The translations under genes were made by a program, and so were the position numbers. The notes under the pieces are model-generated. The model was given only the letters and a program-made list of their open reading frames with translations, had not been told where the DNA came from and did no database searches. From Nitrosopumilus sp. (GTDB lineage Archaea; Thermoproteota; Nitrososphaeria; Nitrososphaerales; Nitrosopumilaceae), in NCBI GenBank assembly GCA_965218695.1, contig OZ244651.1, positions 2,272,001-2,336,000 on the forward strand: a stretch of 64,000 nucleotides of DNA, in the 5' to 3' direction. Positions 50,359-62,220 of this stretch are shown piece after piece (position 1 is the stretch's first letter; each line of letters opens with the position of its first letter).

Positions 50359-51790
50359 TGTATAGTCCCGAAAGTTGTTCACCCCCCACATGAGGCTCCG
50401 GCCCGGGGTGGACATGCCCAATGAAGGACATTATCCGCGGCATGGCATCGCGTGCAAGATTACTGGGAAATGCAGTCAGCCTGTCCCTTACCAGAAACGA
50501 CGGTGTGTGGGTTTCCCGTCGGTGGAGACGCTCGGCCGTGTGGCGTCATATAGGAAGACGGAGAGTGCGAGTGATGAAAAAGCTTGACCAGTCCAAAGTC
50601 GAATGGATCATACAAGAAAAGCGCAAGAATTCCCGCAACAAAGAGATTGCAGCAAGCATGGGAGTGTCGGTCCGCTGGGTCCAAAAGCTGTGGAAGAGGT
50701 ACAGGGACAAGGATCGGATCGCGTATCCTGCTCCCATGGGCAGGCCCAAAAAGTGCGCGCCCGGGAGGCGGGATCATTCGGCGGTTTTATCGGCTGCGTC
50801 CACTGCAGTCCACGGGGCAGCGTCCCTGGAGCGCATCATAAAGTCGCTTACAGGAATACATATCCCACACAACGTCCTGCACAGGATATTGAAGGATGCC
50901 GATTTTGCAGACACCCAGCCAAGGAAGAGCCAGCGCCGCAAGTGGATCCGCTACGAGCGCGAGCACTCCAACTCGATGTGGCACACAGACTACAAACAGC
51001 TTGACGACGGCAGGTGGTTCCTGTGCTATGAAGACGACGCCTCGCGCTTCGTGACCGGATTTGGGGTATTTGAGGAGGCGACAACCGAAAACGCCCTGAA
51101 GGTGCTCGACGAGGCCATAAAAAATTACGGCAAGCCCGCATCGATCCTGACTGACCGCGGCGCCCAGTTCTATGCCACGGAATCCGAGGTCAAGAAGAAG
51201 GGAGCCTCCAGGTTCGAGCAGAGGCTAGTCGAGCTTGGAATCAGGCACATACTGGCGCGCGTGCGGCACCCCCAAACCAACGGCAAGCTGGAGCGCCTGC
51301 ACGGGGAGATGCAGCGCAAGCTGCGCCGGTTCGAGGCGGCATCTTCTGCCAAGACCAGGCGCGGCGCCTCAGGGGATTCCCACGTTGGAGGGCCGTTTTG
51401 CACCGCGCCAGCAAAGGATCCCGTGGAGCGGTTCATGGAGTGGTACAACCACGACCGGCCGCACATGTCCCTTGACTGGGACAACCTCGAGACCCCGGCG
51501 CAGGCATTCGAAAGAAAGATGCCCCCTGCAGGAGAGATGGTAGTGGACGGCCAGACCGGTGAGGAATACCGCGCAGAATAGCTGTCCGGCACGACGTCAC
51601 AACCGCGCCCCATCCTGGGGGATGTTGCGCACAATTTTTTGAAAGTCGTCATGCGTGGAGTGGAAATGACAAAAATTCATGATTCCGGACGCAGGATCCA
51701 ACACAAGACAATTATGCAACAGCCGGCAACATCAAACATGGAAGTACCTCCAAGTCTTGGAGGGGGGCGAACTACTTTCGGGATCCCACA
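50359..51790 (+). mobile_element. IS481-family element type B, copy 2 (1432 bp)
   Basis: Same ends as copy 1; perfect 15-bp TSD TTCGGGAGGATGCGA. Confidence 0.95.
50574..51581 (+). CDS. IS481-family transposase
   Basis: Protein identical to copy 1. Confidence 0.93.
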   Translation: MKKLDQSKVEWIIQEKRKNSRNKEIAASMGVSVRWVQKLWKRYRDKDRIAYPAPMGRPKKCAPGRRDHSAVLSAASTAVHGAASLERIIKSLTGIHIPHNVLHRILKDADFADTQPRKSQRRKWIRYEREHSNSMWHTDYKQLDDGRWFLCYEDDASRFVTGFGVFEEATTENALKVLDEAIKNYGKPASILTDRGAQFYATESEVKKKGASRFEQRLVELGIRHILARVRHPQTNGKLERLHGEMQRKLRRFEAASSAKTRRGASGDSHVGGPFCTAPAKDPVERFMEWYNHDRPHMSLDWDNLETPAQAFERKMPPAGEMVVDGQTGEEYRAE

Positions 51791-51816
51791 TTCGGGAGGA
51801 TGCGAGTCTGGATCCA

Positions 51817-51888
51817 GCACCGCGTGGACACGGCACCGCGTGGACACGGCACCGCGTGGACACGGCACCGCGTGGACACGACACCGCG
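51817..51888. repeat. 16-bp tandem repeat GCACCGCGTGGACACG x4.5
   Basis: Directly visible; no spacers. Confidence 0.92.
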
Positions 51889-51977
51889 CAGGCTGCAAAA
51901 TCAGCCCCATGCCAGAATCAGGCCCGGACACATCCGCCATAGGAAAGGTTGATTTAACCAGAGGGATCAGCAACATC

Positions 51978-52283
51978 ATGACTGACATTGATGCCCAGAA
52001 GGACGTCTACCTCTTCCTGCACGGAAGGATGGACCTCAGGGAAAAGGCAGCAGCTGCCCTTGCCACAAAAGGCTTTGCCGCAGACAAGATAGTCATGGCA
52101 ATGCCAGACAAGGTCGGGAAGGTGGGCGACTACATGGCAATGCTGTGGATGCCGCCAAATCCGGATCATATCAAGATCCAGCAGATTACGGGAGTCATCG
52201 ACGTGGAGCCAGAAGGCATGATCGGCCTCTGGAAGGGCGTCTCAAAGGATGACATAGACCAGGTTCCCCTTGGGGCTAGCTAG
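51978..52283 (+). CDS. Hypothetical protein
   Basis: MTDIDAQKDVYLFLHGRMDLREKA...; the longer ORF-track N-terminus is IS/repeat read-through. Confidence 0.7.
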   Translation: MTDIDAQKDVYLFLHGRMDLREKAAAALATKGFAADKIVMAMPDKVGKVGDYMAMLWMPPNPDHIKIQQITGVIDVEPEGMIGLWKGVSKDDIDQVPLGAS

Positions 52284-53716: not shown

Positions 53717-56700
53717 TTAGTCGAGCCTGTCGTATGGCTCGATGGGCTCCCTTGTGGTCTGGTTTGTCTTGAGCCACTCCAGCGTGTTTACAAACGACTC
53801 TGCAAGCTCGATCGTAGTCAGCACCGGAACGCCAAGCTCCAGGGACTTTCTCCTGATCTGGTACTCGTCTTCGAGCATCCCGACGTACTTTTCAAGCGTG
53901 GAGGTGCTTGGGATGTTTATGATAAAGTCTATGGTCCTCTCGTAGAGAAGATCCGCGATGTTGGGCTTCCTGTCAGGCTCGGATATCTTGTGTACAGTCT
54001 CCACGTCCCCGATCCTCTCCTGGAGAAACTCTGCAGTGTGCTCTGTGGCCAGGATCCGGAACCCCAGATCCCTGAGCTTGGCAACGGTTGCAACAAGGGC
54101 CTTCTTGTTCTGCACGCCGCCCACGGTTACGAGGGCCGCGCCGCTCTTGGGCAGGTTGTAGCCCACCGAGGTGAGCCCCTTGGAGAGGGCATCATAAAAG
54201 CTGTTTCCAAAGCACGCTGCCTCCCCTGTCGACTGCATCTCCACTCCCAGCGTGATGTCTGCCCCCTCAAGCTGCATGAACGAGAACTGCGGGACCTTGA
54301 TTCCGTAGTTGGTTATCTTTTGCCACTTGTTCTCGGGTATCGCAGGCAACGGCATGCCCAGAATCGCCTTGGATGCAAGGGATATCAGGTTGGTCCGGAC
54401 AAGCTTTGAGACAAACGGCATGGAGCGCGAGGCCCGGATGTTAAGCTCGATGACGTACACGTGGTCGTCGTGGATGAGAAACTGCAGGTTGAACGGGCCG
54501 CGCACGTTGAAGGTCAGGGCTATCTTTTTTGCATACTCGTTTATCGTCTCGACTATCTTGTTGCTCAGGCGCCACGGCGGGATGCACATCATTGCGTCGC
54601 CGGAGTGGACCCCGGCACTGTCAATGTGCTCGACTATCGCGCCTATCACTACGCGGCTCCCGTCGCAGACCCCGTCAACGTCCACCTCGAGGGAGTCGAG
54701 CATGAACTTGGATATCACCACGGGATGATCCGGCGAGACGTCGGTGGCCTCCTTGACGTACCTCTTCAGCTCGGCCTGTGACCAGACCGCCTTCATGGCC
54801 GCACCTGACAGGACGTACGAGGGACGGACTATCACGGGGAATCCCACGTCCTGTGCAAAGGATCTTGCCTCGTTCAGGCTCAGAAACTCCTGCCACCGCG
54901 GCTGCTGTATGTGGAGCTTGTCAAGCTCTCCGCTGAACCTTGAGCGGTTCTCTGCCATGTCCACATCACGCGCGCTTGTGCCCAGTATGGGCACGCCGTG
55001 CTCGGCGAGCCCGAGCGTGAGGTTGTTGGCAGTCTGTCCCCCGACACACGTGATGACGCCCTTTGGGTTCTCAAACTCGGTAATGTCCAGGATCCTCTCC
55101 TGGGTCAGCTCCTCAAAGTACAGCCTGGTGCATATGTCATAGTCAGTAGACACCGTCTCGGGATTGCAGTTGACCACGGAGACGTTCTTCTCCCCGTTCT
55201 CCTGGAGTCCCCAGACCATGTTGACTGTTCCCCAGTCAAACTCCACGCTGCTTCCTATCCGGTACGGCCCGGCACCGACTACGACTATTCCCTTCTCGTC
55301 AGGCGATACCCTGATGTCAGAAGAGTCCCCCCCGTACGTCATGTACAGGTAGTTGGTCACGGCAGGCCACTCTGCTGCAAGCGTGTCTATCTGCTTTACA
55401 GACGGCAGCACGCCAAGCCTTTTGCGCAGGGCGCGCACCGAATCCTGCGTGCTGTCCTGTGCACGCGCAATCTGCTTGTCGGCAAACCCCATCCTCTTTG
55501 CACTCCAGAGAAGGCCCGCATCAAGATCCCGGGACCCGAGGGCATCCCCCATGGCCACGATGTTCTTTATCTTTTCAATGAACCACGGATCTATCGCAGA
55601 CAGGTGGTAGATTCGGTCCACCGGTATGCCCATCCTCAGCGCAACGGCCACGTGGTACAGTATGGAGTCGTCATGGTGCGAGAGTTTCTCCTCTATCTCC
55701 TCCTCGTCGTACGTTTTGCCATTCTCCCGGTTCAGGACCAGCCCGTCGCGTCCGATGTCAAGCATGCGTATTGACTTTTGCAGTGACTCCTCAAACGTTC
55801 GGCCTACTGCCATCACCTCGCCTACGGACTTCATCGTGGGGCCAAGCCTCCTGTTGGCAAGCTCAAACTTTGAAAAGTCCCACCGCGGATGCTTGCACAC
55901 CACGTAGTCAAGGGACGGCTCAAAGCAGGCAGTGGTGCTCTTTGTGATTCGGTTGACCAGCTCAGACAGGTTGTAGCCGAGGCCTATCTTGGCAGACATG
56001 TACGCAAGGGGGTATCCTGTGGCCTTGCTTGCAAGGGCAGAGGAGCGCGAAAGGCGGGGGTTTATCTCGATTGCGACATATCTGTCCGAGTCGGGCGCCA
56101 GGGCATACTGTATGTTGCACTCCCCCACGATCCTGACATGCTTTGTGGCGCGCAGGGCAGCCGAGCGCAGCATGTGGTACTCGTGGTTGTCAATTGTCTG
56201 GGACGGGGCAACCACTATGTTGTCCCCCGTGTGCACCCGCATGGAGAGGACGTTTTCCATGTTGCAGACGACTATGTTGTTTCCGTCATAGTCCTGCATC
56301 ACCTCGTACTCTATCTGCTTCCAGTCCCCGATGTACTCCTCTATGAGCACCTGGCCTACCAGGCTTGCCTTGATGCCGCGCTCCACTATCTCGTACAGCT
56401 CGATCTCGTTGTGCGCCACTCCCCCGCCCCTGCCTCCAAGGGTGTAGGCCACACGAATAATCACAGGGTAGGACAGCGCCTCTGCGGCATTCTTGGCGTC
56501 TGCAAAGTTTGTGACCGTCCTGCTCTTGAGCACAGGCATCCCTATCCCGGTCATCGCATCCTTGAAGAGCTGCCGGTCCTCGGTCCTTTGGATCCCCTCT
56601 ACCTGGGTTCCAAGAACGCCGACGCCGTACTTTTGCAGTATGCCGGACTCGGAGAGCCTTACGCCGCAGTTCAGCGCAGTCTGCCCGCCGTATGCCAGCA

Positions 56701-56980
56701 TTATGCCGTCTGGCCTCTCCTTCTCTATGATCGATTCCACATACTCGGGAGTTACGGGAAGAAGGTACACCTGGTCTGCAAACCTGGTGTCAGTCTGAAT
56801 GGTGGCTATGTTCGGGTTGATAAGCACACTCTTCAGTCCGTCCTCACGTATTGCCTTGAGGCACTGGCTACCGGAGTAGTCAAATTGACGGTCGTTTTAG
56901 CGACTCTCGCCGGCTTCTCCGATTTTTATTGCCCCACTGCCCAGTACAAGAATCTTCCTTAGCGACTCATTCTTTGGCAG
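53717..56980 (-). CDS. carB: Carbamoyl-phosphate synthase large subunit, interrupted by a 21-nt putative intron
   Basis: PKNESLRKILVLGSGAIKIGEAGE|FDYSGSQCLKA...INPNIATIQTD; two ATP-grasp domains plus MGS domain; probable CTG start after GGAGGAGG. Confidence 0.93.
56885..56905 (-). other. Putative bulge-helix-bulge (tRNA-type) intron in carB mRNA
   Basis: GGCG-AG^A-GUCG-CUAAAA-CGAC-CGUC-AA^U; excision gives GGC GAG UUU GAC (GEFD). Confidence 0.85.
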
Positions 56981-58130
56981 AACATCCCTCCTCCTCTTCC
57001 ATAAGGCCTTTGAGCTCTTCAAAGACGAACCTGCAGTCGTACGGGCCTGGCGCGGCCTCGGGATGAAACTGCACAGCAATGCAGCTGCGCGTCTTGTGCC
57101 TTATCCCCTCGACTGTATTGTCGTCTGCGTTTGTAAACCACAAGTCAAACTCGGAACCCTCAAGGGACTCCGGTGTTATGCCGTAGCCATGGTTCTGGCT
57201 TGTGACATATACCTGGTTGTTATCCAGGTTGAGGCACGGCTTGTTCTGTCCCCGGTGCCCGTACTTTAGCTTGTATGTAGCGGCGTTTCCTGCAATTCCC
57301 ATTATCTGCGCACCCAGACATATTCCAAGGGTCGGAACGTCATTGCGTATCAGCTGCCGTACGGTGTCGATGGTCTCTGGACACCTCTGCGGATCCCCCG
57401 GGCCGCTGCTCAGCACCACGCCCCGCGGCCGGTATGACATTACCGTCTCGTACGGGGTGTTCCACGGGAGAAGTACTGCGCGGTATCCTATGTTGCGTAT
57501 GTTTCTCAGTATCGCGTTCTTTGCACCTGTGTCAATCACCACCACGCACTCGGACTCATCCCCGTAGGTCTTTGCCTGCCTTGTGGATACGGCATCCATG
57601 AACTGCTCAGAGCCGTAGTGCGCAGCAGACGCCAGGCCTTCTTGCACCTGCTTGACGTCTATCTCAGAGTCAGAGACTGCAAGTGCTGCCATCATCACGC
57701 CGCCGGTTCTGAGCTTTTTGGTAAGCTGGCGCGTGTCTATTCCAGATATTCCCGGGATTCCCTCCCTGTGCATCCATTGGTCAAGCGTCATGAAGAGGTT
57801 CCAATGGCTTGCGACAAGGGACAGCTCGTGGACCACCAGCCCCCGGACCTGTATCCGGTCAGACTCGAAGAACCTGGGGATTCCGTCGGCATCAACTGCG
57901 CCGGGATCCGGAACGCCATAGTTTCCAACCAGGGGGTACGTGAGTGTCAGGATCTGGCCGTTATACGAGGGATCAGTCAGCGCCTCGGGGTACCCGACCA
58001 TCCCGGTATTGAATACAATCTCGCCAAACCCTGTCGTGGAGCCGCCAAACCCATTACCGTCAAGAGCGGTCCCGTCGTCAAAAACCAGCTTTCCGAACTT
58101 TTGTGCGTGGTTTGATCTTTTTATAGTAAT
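56967..58130 (-). CDS. carA: Carbamoyl-phosphate synthase small subunit
   Basis: GEIVFNTGMVGY, TDPSY, LGICLG, QFHPE; conserved N-terminus extends upstream of the first ATG, so the start is uncertain (ATT/ATA). Confidence 0.92.
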   Translation of the reverse strand: MTIKRSNHAQKFGKLVFDDGTALDGNGFGGSTTGFGEIVFNTGMVGYPEALTDPSYNGQILTLTYPLVGNYGVPDPGAVDADGIPRFFESDRIQVRGLVVHELSLVASHWNLFMTLDQWMHREGIPGISGIDTRQLTKKLRTGGVMMAALAVSDSEIDVKQVQEGLASAAHYGSEQFMDAVSTRQAKTYGDESECVVVIDTGAKNAILRNIRNIGYRAVLLPWNTPYETVMSYRPRGVVLSSGPGDPQRCPETIDTVRQLIRNDVPTLGICLGAQIMGIAGNAATYKLKYGHRGQNKPCLNLDNNQVYVTSQNHGYGITPESLEGSEFDLWFTNADDNTVEGIRHKTRSCIAVQFHPEAAPGPYDCRFVFEELKGLMEEEEGCSAKE

Positions 58131-58192
58131 TTTAACCCTCGTTGAGTCCGCAATAATGTGAATTTAAGTTTTATGCCCGGGTTGCCGGCTTC

Positions 58193-59251
58193 TGTTGTAC
58201 AAAAATTAGTTCCGCCCAAGATCAAGCGAACCATGAAGGGTTGCTTGATGATGCTGTACCGCCCGCATCGTGTGAAGAGGACGAGGCTGACCGAGAATGC
58301 AGTCAGATACGCCATACGACGGCAGCAGCAGAAAGGCGAGAATCCCTCAAAGATAGCAGCAGAACTCGGCATGATCCCGGGATACGTGAGAATCCTGTGG
58401 GCCAGTCTCCAGAATACCGGCAGGATCCCGGTTCCGCGCAAGGCGGGACGTCCAAAAGGAACGATTACGCAAGACGCCGTCAGAACCGTGCTGGAGTGGC
58501 ACGGCAGGATGCCTGCAGGCGTGGTGCGCCCCGCCCGACGCCTCAAGGCAGCCAATCAAGGCAGCCAATCAAGGCATAAGCTACGGCGCAGCATACCACC
58601 ATGAAGTCAGAGAACGTGGCAACGCCTTCCCCTGCAAGATCAGGACGTCGCAGGCGGGCGCGATGCGAGCGCAGGTACTCCAATGCGATGCGGCACGTGG
58701 ACCGGCACCAGACCAAGGATCCGCGCCTGAAGGGGCTCAACCCCATAGCGTCTCCGGATGACGCATCCGGGCGCATATCGTGATTTGGCGTGTTCCAGGA
58801 CGCAACCTCAGAATGCCACGCCGGTACTGCGCAAGGCGATGCGCGAGTACGGAGCCCCCGCACAGATGCTGTCTGACAACGGCAGGTGCCTTGCCGCAGG
58901 CAGGATGGGCAGCGGCCCAAGGAAGAGGGGAATCCTACCACGTTCGAGCAGAATCTACTTGACGACGGCATCTTGCCGATAACCACCCGGGCCACACCGC
59001 CCCCGGACCAACGAAGAGATCGAGCGGTTCTTCCGGACATTCGAGGAGGAGTTTGTCCGCTTTGACAGGGCAGGTGAGTTCATGGAGTTCTACAATGAGC
59101 AAAGGACTCGCTCGTCACCTGACCTGAAACATGCCGAGACGCCTCCGAGGGCATTCCACAACAGAAAAGTGCCACATGAGATCAGGAGAGGCAACCCAAA
59201 TGGAGTGAGGGGGGTGCCAATGACTAGCGGAACTGATTTCCACATGATACA
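58193..59251 (+). pseudogene. Degenerate IS481-family element
   Basis: TGTTGTACAAAAATTAGTTCC left end and GGAACTGATTTCC...ACA right end; fragmented motifs (ERRYSNAM, DDASG, LSDNG, IERFFRTF); a 13-bp duplication near 58545-58575 shifts the frame. Confidence 0.85.
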
Positions 59252-59293
59252 AACCCCACACACACAATAAAACGTTAATACCAGTACCGCGTA

Positions 59294-59917
59294 ATGTGCT
59301 TATTGAACATTTCCAAGATGGATGAGATAATTCTGTCATGTCTCTCCAAGGATGCGAAAATTTCCACCAAGGAAATCGTGATTGAATTCAAGCGTAACGG
59401 CATAACCCGCACTGAGCGGGCTGTCTTGGGAAGAATTCATAGACTGGAACAGGAGGGGATCATCTCTGGGTATACGCTAAAGACCAAACCCCAAAACTAC
59501 GAGGGGAAGATCATCCGATTCGTACTGATATCCTTCAAGACGTCTGAACTGTTCGAGGAACGCGTGGCAATGTTCACAAACTATCTTCATGATGCCCCCT
59601 TTGCTGCCCTTGCAGCCAGGACCAGGGGGGAGTACGACTGGATCAACGTCAAGATCTTCCCAAATACAAAGGTGGCAAACATGGAGAGCGACTCTTTCAG
59701 AACTCTGTTTGGAGACATCATAGACAAGTACATGGCGTTTGACCTGACTCCGATCAAGGGACCGGATTTTGTTCGTGCCGTAAATTACACGATAAGGGAA
59801 TTTTATGAATTTGTAGAAAAATGCATAGGGGTTACTGCCGTAAAAGAAGAAATTTCTTTGAAAGACGTACCTCAGGGAAATAAATACGTCTCAAAGAGCA
59901 ATCTGGAGACAAATTAG
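59294..59917 (+). CDS. Lrp/AsnC-family transcriptional regulator
   Basis: DEIILSCLSKDAK...RIHRLEQEGIISGYT...RGEYD. Confidence 0.85.
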   Translation: MCLLNISKMDEIILSCLSKDAKISTKEIVIEFKRNGITRTERAVLGRIHRLEQEGIISGYTLKTKPQNYEGKIIRFVLISFKTSELFEERVAMFTNYLHDAPFAALAARTRGEYDWINVKIFPNTKVANMESDSFRTLFGDIIDKYMAFDLTPIKGPDFVRAVNYTIREFYEFVEKCIGVTAVKEEISLKDVPQGNKYVSKSNLETN

Positions 59918-60788: not shown

Positions 60789-62220
60789 TGTGGGATCCCG
60801 AAAGTAGTTCGCCCCCCTCCAAGACTTGGAGGTACTTCCATGTTTGATGTTGCCGGCTGTTGCATAATTGTCTTGTGTTGGATCCTGCGTCCGGAATCAT
60901 GAATTTTTGTCATTTCCACTCCACGCATGGCGACTTTCAAAAAATTGTGCGCAACATCCCCCAGGATGGGGCGCGGTTGTGACGTCGTGCCGGACAGCTA
61001 TTCTGCGCGGTATTCCTCACCGGTCTGGCCGTCCACTACCATCTCTCCTGCAGGGGGCATCTTTCTTTCGAATGCCTGCGCCGGGGTCTCGAGGTTGTCC
61101 CAGTCAAGGGACATGTGCGGCCGGTCGTGGTTGTACCACTCCATGAACCGCTCCACGGGATCCTTTGCTGGCGCGGTGCAAAACGGCCCTCCAACGTGGG
61201 AATCCCCTGAGGCGCCGCGCCTGGTCTTGGCAGAAGATGCCGCCTCGAACCGGCGCAGCTTGCGCTGCATCTCCCCGTGCAGGCGCTCCAGCTTGCCGTT
61301 GGTTTGGGGGTGCCGCACGCGCGCCAGTATGTGCCTGATTCCAAGCTCGACTAGCCTCTGCTCGAACCTGGAGGCTCCCTTCTTCTTGACCTCGGATTCC
61401 GTGGCATAGAACTGGGCGCCGCGGTCAGTCAGGATCGATGCGGGCTTGCCGTAATTTTTTATGGCCTCGTCGAGCACCTTCAGGGCGTTTTCGGTTGTCG
61501 CCTCCTCAAATACCCCAAATCCGGTCACGAAGCGCGAGGCGTCGTCTTCATAGCACAGGAACCACCTGCCGTCGTCAAGCTGTTTGTAGTCTGTGTGCCA
61601 CATCGAGTTGGAGTGCTCGCGCTCGTAGCGGATCCACTTGCGGCGCTGGCTCTTCCTTGGCTGGGTGTCTGCAAAATCGGCATCCTTCAATATCCTGTGC
61701 AGGACGTTGTGTGGGATATGTATTCCTGTAAGCGACTTTATGATGCGCTCCAGGGACGCTGCCCCGTGGACTGCAGTGGACGCAGCCGATAAAACCGCCG
61801 AATGATCCCGCCTCCCGGGCGCGCACTTTTTGGGCCTGCCCATGGGAGCAGGATACGCGATCCGATCCTTGTCCCTGTACCTCTTCCACAGCTTTTGGAC
61901 CCAGCGGACCGACACTCCCATGCTTGCTGCAATCTCTTTGTTGCGGGAATTCTTGCGCTTTTCTTGTATGATCCATTCGACTTTGGACTGGTCAAGCTTT
62001 TTCATCACTCGCACTCTCCGTCTTCCTATATGACGCCACACGGCCGAGCGTCTCCACCGACGGGAAACCCACACACCGTCGTTTCTGGTAAGGGACAGGC
62101 TGACTGCATTTCCCAGTAATCTTGCACGCGATGCCATGCCGCGGATAATGTCCTTCATTGGGCATGTCCACCCCGGGCCGGAGCCTCATGTGGGGGGTGA
62201 ACAACTTTCGGGACTATACA
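60789..62220 (-). mobile_element. IS481-family element type B, copy 3 (1432 bp)
   Basis: Same ends, inverted; perfect 15-bp TSD CTGGACTAGATGGCA. Confidence 0.95.
60998..62005 (-). CDS. IS481-family transposase
   Basis: Protein identical to copies 1 and 2. Confidence 0.93.
   Translation of the reverse strand: MKKLDQSKVEWIIQEKRKNSRNKEIAASMGVSVRWVQKLWKRYRDKDRIAYPAPMGRPKKCAPGRRDHSAVLSAASTAVHGAASLERIIKSLTGIHIPHNVLHRILKDADFADTQPRKSQRRKWIRYEREHSNSMWHTDYKQLDDGRWFLCYEDDASRFVTGFGVFEEATTENALKVLDEAIKNYGKPASILTDRGAQFYATESEVKKKGASRFEQRLVELGIRHILARVRHPQTNGKLERLHGEMQRKLRRFEAASSAKTRRGASGDSHVGGPFCTAPAKDPVERFMEWYNHDRPHMSLDWDNLETPAQAFERKMPPAGEMVVDGQTGEEYRAE

Follow-up and report, generated by a model that had tools for sequence, protein, structure and literature searches.

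The carB frame and its insert

How could a full-length CarB be made from a gene that meets a stop codon soon after its first 25 codons? In the window analysed here (the whole 64,000-nt stretch of Nitrosopumilus sp. DNA, in whose coordinates positions are given unless a genome position is named), a 21-nt insert at 56885..56905 on the minus strand splits the carB codons for Gly-Glu from those for Phe-Asp and brings in an in-frame UAA, just as a preliminary description of this DNA had stated; the UAA (56897-56899, minus strand) is its third codon. We hold with high confidence that the insert is an archaeal tRNA-type mRNA intron spliced by EndA and RtcB. In the mechanism that we propose, the carAB transcript would fold into an outer exon helix, an internal loop, a 4-bp central helix, a 3-nt bulge and an intron hairpin; the broad-specificity (alpha-beta)2 EndA would cut the bulge behind its second base and the loop at the corresponding position; and RtcB would join the exons to give G-E-F-D and a full-length CarB. 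Left unspliced, the carB mRNA would yield a dead peptide of ~27 residues.

We found carB sequence on both sides of the insert, which lies in phase 0 at the Glu25/Phe26 boundary. Exon 1 (56906..56980, minus strand; 25 codons, start inferred from alignment) matches the beginning of the CarB preATP-grasp domain in a profile search (E 0.0015, below the cut-off) and aligns to residues 1-25, in the first domain, of E. coli CarB; its last residue is Glu25, which in E. coli CarB lines the carbamate tunnel. Exon 2 (53717..56884, minus strand) is open for 1055 codons plus a stop and matches TIGR01369 from profile position 25 onward at 1366 bits (cut-off 1027), which bears out the earlier statement that the rest of carB is intact. 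A second intact carB, whose presence could have left this copy to decay, was looked for, and the window copy proved to be the only carB in the genome (2.63 Mb, rated 99.99% complete). Even with up to 4 mismatches allowed, the genome gave no second copy of the intron, bar one chance match with 4 mismatches, and Rfam gave 0 matches within 56500-59300 at E up to 1. A self-splicing group I or group II intron was rejected, the insert being 21 nt against a ribozyme core of hundreds of nucleotides.

The carA gene (56967..58130, minus strand; start inferred) belongs to the same operon and lies directly upstream, its 3' end overlapping the carB start by 14 nt. The carB start is CUG (56978-56980, minus strand), where intronless relatives have AUG or UUG. 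Among loci with Pro at position 2, CUG stands at the carB Met position in 58 intron-bearing loci and in 0 intronless ones; it is also kept in three loci of putative recent intron loss, which fall outside that count. The start of carA is likely AUU (58128-58130, minus strand), behind a conserved SD-like GAGGG; the first AUG (58001) would miss ~30 profile positions. An AUU or AUA start of carA with a conserved SD-like motif was seen in most of the family loci shown, intron-bearing or intronless. Both genes of the operon thus appear to begin at weak codons, and ORF callers would truncate both. The promoter scan was of the sigma-70 type and is uninformative here.

Around the operon, an Lrp/AsnC-like regulator gene with weak matches (59294-59917, plus strand) is divergent from carAB and separated from it by ~1.1 kb with transposase-like remnants; it is possibly a car regulator. 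Two identical IS481-family transposase copies (50421-51581, plus strand; 60998-62158, minus strand) face each other around carAB, and the genome is IS-rich. An 877-nt stretch elsewhere (G000:C1:31984-32860), part of a transposase-like frame, gives 26 blast matches, and ARAGORN mis-calls it ~20 times as tRNA-Tyr with a 783-nt intron. The ORF at 51639-52283 holds short tandem repeats at 51700-51900, with TAWTRHR-type units in its translation.

Recurrence of the insert at the same codon

Ten of 30 loci of the genus carry an insert at the same codon boundary (five of 21 nt, four of 22 nt and one of 23 nt), and the 23-nt insert has a wholly different hairpin. The alignment of Nitrosopumilaceae carB that had been suggested as a check gave the same-codon insert in 260 of the 367 family genomes with the site (8-38 nt; draw of 401), and these carriers span 25 of 27 genera; both helices covary among the distinct units compared below. 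In the window genus the insert is patchy, present in 26 of the 97 other genomes that have the site, as it is in g45 (7/35); it was found in none of g35 (0/5). Other families of the same order have it in 9 of 20 genomes (17-30 nt), with three further matched genomes left out. In the family of locus L102 it occurs in 138 of 143 genomes with the site (136/141 minus the unpublished G848 and G870). In Nitrosocosmicus, the genus of L102, all 33 genomes with the site have it.

Farther afield, a phylum draw outside the family had 47 genomes with the site; the insert was found in 2 of them, which belong to another class where 3 of 4 with the site have it. In the class to which a Woesearchaeota record belongs, one of seven carB matches has its break at the site. 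A scan of GTDB contigs returned at least 116 insert-bearing loci, with titles naming Nitrosopumilus, Nitrosarchaeum, Nitrosotenuis, Nitrosotalea, Cenarchaeum, Nitrosopelagicus, Nitrososphaera, Nitrosocosmicus and Nitrosomirales; further loci are one Woesearchaeota, two labelled Methanosarcinales (L135 and L164; labels as given) and one unlabelled archaeon. The carB of a Heimdallarchaeota-labelled contig with the insert groups with Nitrosopumilaceae. Overall, intron length ranges from 17 to about 50 nt, and the intron is common to most ammonia-oxidising archaea examined. Cultured carriers include Ca. Nitrosotenuis chungbukensis MY2, Ca. Nitrosopumilus salarius BD31 and Nitrosopumilus sp. b1.

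Frame, selection and the need for CarB

Among the compared loci, where lengths run from 17 to 38 nt, 63 of 102 distinct inserts are not divisible by 3. Hence, the insert cannot be a protein loop. An in-frame stop is present in 39/39 distinct inserts of 3n length vs 42/63 of the others, and in the other frames of the 3n inserts in 1/39 and 4/39; related inserts in this count are not independent, and 26 share one position. Excision at the predicted cut sites restores the frame in 165/165 loci, with G/A-E followed by F-D; for this locus the EndA cut rule had been expected to give G-E-F-D.

Exon 2 is under purifying selection, with pN/pS of 0.08-0.12 vs four intron bearers and 0.10 vs intronless copies (the values for L029, L055 and L072 are unreliable owing to unaligned indels). 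Exon 1 shows conservation at the protein level (pN 0.02-0.06), and its synonymous divergence is 0.23-0.29, compared with ~0.98 in exon 2.

We found carbamate kinase in just 4 of 121 family genomes. Hence, most carriers depend on CarB. The window genome is one of the four: its arcC-like gene (L213, G000:C1:960784-961731; 343.7 bits, cut-off 358) lies in a low-GC island beside an IS and was probably acquired. Carbamate kinase can replace CPS, according to the available text of PMC6245113. With the arcC-like gene present, CarB need not be essential in the window genome, so that the proposed dependence of arginine and pyrimidine synthesis on splicing stands for most relatives and is weaker for the window organism itself.

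The same arcC-like gene would suit a carB in decay, or an artefact of assembly, if carbamoyl phosphate came from carbamate kinase instead, and one distant carrier (G611) does have further stops and breaks in its carB. We give this reading practically no chance: the same-site insert recurs with compensatory changes in hundreds of independent assemblies, which disposes of the artefact that the preliminary description had allowed for, exon 2 is intact and under purifying selection, and arcC is missing from G018, the closest relative, as it is from most of the family. It is this recurrence in hundreds of genomes, and not the folding energy, that excludes chance and assembly error.

Structure and covariation of the intron RNA

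At minimum energy (frequency 0.73) the 33-nt core folds into the helix of 4 bp, the 3-nt bulge and the inner hairpin with its 4-bp stem that were seen at the outset. On the minus strand, the exon strand of the central helix (56908..56911) pairs with intron positions 56887-56890, and the 3-nt 5' bulge occupies 56905..56907, with the cut predicted after its second base, between 56906 and 56905, by the rule given in the available text of PMC2738675. The inner hairpin (56891..56904), which shows covariation, has a 4-bp stem and a 6-nt loop holding the UAA. The intron strand of the central helix and the 3' cut site, between 56885 and 56884, together make up 56884..56890. Two details of the first description had to be revised. 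The 3' cut site lies in a 2x7 internal loop, and the canonical second 3-nt bulge of a strict hBHBh' motif is absent; and the outer exon-exon helix (56870..56923, pairing 56914-56923 with 56870-56879), taken to be loosely formed, is a conserved 7+2 bp. The order of outer helix, 2x7 loop, central helix, bulge and hairpin is the relaxed HBh'/BHL form. By itself the folding energy does not stand out (z -0.15 to -1.94), and longer folding windows adopt a slightly different register, with the splice-competent form 1.9 kcal/mol above the minimum.

Comparison across loci was more telling than energy. The outer helix keeps at least 6 of its 7 pairs in 155/159 intron-bearing flanks vs 8/45 intronless flanks; the GTDB contig scan pattern fixed five outer-helix letters, and the genus, family and order sets, in which these were unfixed, gave the same outcome. 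The synonymous codon positions of the exon flanks are thus locked into this helix. In the central helix, the inner three pairs hold in all 107 distinct helix-plus-intron units and the first pair is mismatched in 12 of them; its two-sided changes track a synonymous Gly change in G037 and G038 and a Gly-to-Ala change in G570, G576 and G615. In the inner stem, the first four positions pair in 422 of 428 cells; shuffles averaged 325 and peaked at 340, and slid registers gave 67-170. Among 35 variants of 21 nt, pairing is 96%, with 27 two-sided changes vs 5.5 in shuffled sets, and 0/500 shuffles reached as high, kinship among genomes inflating these covariation counts as it does the stop counts.

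The hairpin and the stop could also serve a ribosome that hops the insert on an uncut RNA. Translational bypass needs matching take-off and landing codons. Here a hairpin and a stop follow the upstream codon nearly always, with the first stop within 1-6 codons in 86/107 units, and the RNA contigs described below are unspliced; against bypass, the last codon of the insert differs from the take-off Glu codon, the next codon is mostly a sense Ser codon, the conserved geometry is of the EndA type (a 4-bp helix with a 3-nt bulge, the insert ends falling two bases into bulge and loop), and near-identical intronless contigs exist. We consider bypass very improbable.

Splicing machinery and RNA evidence

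The window genome encodes the two EndA subunits, alpha and beta, and an intact RtcB gene. In alignment with crenarchaeal alpha chains, the 184-aa EndA alpha shows the lysine-bearing YYGKP loop and the catalytic Tyr/His/Lys, and CSL-bearing (alpha-beta)2 EndA removes HBh' and BHL introns, according to the available text of PMC5829648. We infer that EndA and RtcB are the acting enzymes and that splicing takes place in the window organism. Several tRNA genes of this genome appear to hold introns outside the canonical position.

We scanned 241 million metagenome records for the intron-type exon codons minus the insert and obtained 11 matches. Eight were set aside as distant lineages (62-69%) and one, L221, as only 80% identical to its nearest locus. 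The two others, L224 and L227 from one assembly, match L102 and L146 at 374/378 nt (99%) and lack exactly the predicted 32- and 25-nt introns of these two Nitrosocosmicus matches; in a 300-nt tree they are sister rows of the matched genomes at 100/98-99. On the simplest reading L224 and L227, whose library type is unstated, are probably spliced cDNA. Precise genomic loss exists as well: L234-L236 (G274, G245, G341) are intronless, 95% identical to an intron bearer, and keep the intron-type exon codons and the CUG start. As far as sequence comparison goes, these three represent recent, precise intron loss.

Four RNA runs from four studies, chosen from six small-share matches, gave contigs of relatives at 80% likeness with no splice joint and no 21-nt gap. 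Only the unspliced form was seen, at a depth of up to about 90-200 in X21; since rarer variants are lost in such contigs and some of them may stem from DNA, this is weak but real counter-evidence. The intronless L224 and L227 and the unspliced RNA contigs both fit partial splicing, and both come from relatives.

Abundant unspliced RNA would also suit EndA cleavage without ligation, which would destroy or silence the mRNA and leave CarB to an internal start in exon 2 or a minor route. Yeast TSEN cleaves mRNAs for decay without splicing (in the available text of PMC10485636), and exon 2 has a GUG, 19 codons in, from which a frame of 1036 codons runs. Yet exon 1 is conserved as protein and aligns to the first 25 residues of E. 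coli CarB, the predicted cuts restore the frame at every one of the 165 loci, which decay would not need, and precisely joined contigs were found; cleavage for decay is, in our judgement, hardly credible.

A scan by motif and coding score for more introns was discarded, having little power (25,515 candidates, with carB at rank 336). Under a six-feature filter on the genome-wide candidates, carB was the sole 6/6 case and no other among 14 was convincing; this filter is circular, since the carB family supplied its features, and it cannot see other types of motif.

Overall, the tRNA-type intron reading first put forward from this DNA draws strong support from several sides: the insert recurs at one site with lengths that shift the frame, both helices covary, the exons are under synonymous constraint, a suitable EndA and RtcB are encoded, and near-identical contigs lack the intron.

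Evolutionary history

The 300-nt tree has rough support and GC bias, and order-level loci of <270 nt were excluded from it. Its intronless copies fall within groups of carriers, for a total of 12 changes, 9 of them forced (three being metagenome rows). The tree supports several putative intron losses, but no donor or date. No homing endonuclease was found near the window carB, the only LAGLIDADG_3 matches being in two long frames 1.7 Mb away, nor was a homing nuclease found near carB in G570, G576 and G615, where carA is directly upstream.

A LAGLIDADG gene lies directly before carB in three of four low-GC carriers that are not ammonia oxidisers (G611, G612 and G613, not G610), and the LAGLIDADG proteins of L208, L266 and L267 are 430-450 aa and lie directly before or overlap carB. 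A second HBh' intron, about six codons upstream, is present in L135 (G610; 29 nt), L164 (G612; 29 nt) and L178 (G613; 31 nt), and its removal restores GSGA-L-K. These observations suggest that a neighbouring LAGLIDADG nuclease may have spread the intron in small low-GC archaea. In ammonia-oxidising archaea the intron appears to be early, vertically inherited with no nearby homing nuclease, and precisely lost several times; nuclease-driven spread followed by long vertical retention would describe the whole.

Comparison with known spliced RNAs

The carB intron shares the testable features of the cbf5 intron class. As given in the available text of Yokobori 2009 (PMC2738675), the cbf5 pre-mRNA intron of Desulfurococcales and Sulfolobales is also short (16-44 nt, vs 17 to ~50 nt for carB), has a relaxed BHB cut by (alpha-beta)2 EndA between bulge bases two and three, lies near the coding 5' end, shows lineage-specific precise losses and was missed by annotation. 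The two differ in lineage and in gene, a metabolic enzyme here and an RNA modification gene there; the carB intron is in phase 0, whereas that of cbf5 lies inside a catalytic codon; and some cbf5 introns keep frame, whereas all 39 of the 3n carB inserts hold a stop. Unlike cbf5, some carB carriers have a second intron and an adjoining LAGLIDADG gene. In the window genome cbf5 is intact and no intron was found in it.

The BHB intron of Haloferax HVO_1309 is likewise an mRNA substrate of the tRNA splicing endonuclease whose removal is linked to expression, but it lies in a 5' UTR, is cut by an alpha2 enzyme and breaks no frame (Schwarz 2020, PMC7714728; PMC10485636; available text). Non-canonical archaeal tRNA introns of the HBh' and BHL types, processed by CSL-bearing (alpha-beta)2 EndA in the available text of PMC5829648, have the same motif class and enzyme type as carB. 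Unlike them, carB offers an mRNA as substrate, with an outer helix drawn from synonymous codon positions. In HAC1/XBP1, the endonuclease IRE1 and a tRNA ligase remove a frame-breaking intron, switching the protein on. IRE1 cuts there, not EndA, and regulation is proven there and hypothetical for carB. HAC1/XBP1 is named as non-spliceosomal mRNA splicing in the available text of PMC13149111.

The available text of PMC7714728 and PMC10485636 names no archaeal spliced mRNAs other than cbf5 and HVO_1309; PMC10485636, a 2023 review, puts the number of archaeal mRNAs that the tRNA endonuclease splices at two and anticipates further cases. We found no carB intron in print among the openly available papers that our searches covered, and the available text of PMC3082918, PMC4836417, PMC4839502 and PMC6245113 makes no mention of one. 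CarB is probably mis-annotated, as truncated or as a pseudogene, in most of these genomes; the detection of carB in just one genus of Nitrosocaldaceae, given in the available text of PMC7819960, may reflect such mis-annotation.

Implications for ammonia-oxidising archaea

Why the intron was kept invites a tentative proposal, which we think less probable than its opposite: as a domesticated remnant of a nuclease-spread mini-intron, it may act as a switch, with incomplete, regulated carB splicing gating carbamoyl-phosphate synthesis. Candidate inputs would be EndA load, competition from pre-tRNA, ribosome traffic from the overlapping carA frame, and nitrogen or pyrimidine status; hints that could point this way are long retention with no nuclease, the obligatory early stop, the abundant unspliced RNA and the CUG starts in intron bearers. 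If the switch reading is true, carB would be an archaeal counterpart of HAC1/XBP1.

Very probably, then, a core metabolic mRNA of these abundant archaea has to be spliced. The finding adds a central metabolic gene of a highly abundant archaeal group to the small class of spliced archaeal mRNAs, and the cultured carriers, together with natural intronless relatives, make the persistence and regulation of an archaeal mRNA intron directly testable.
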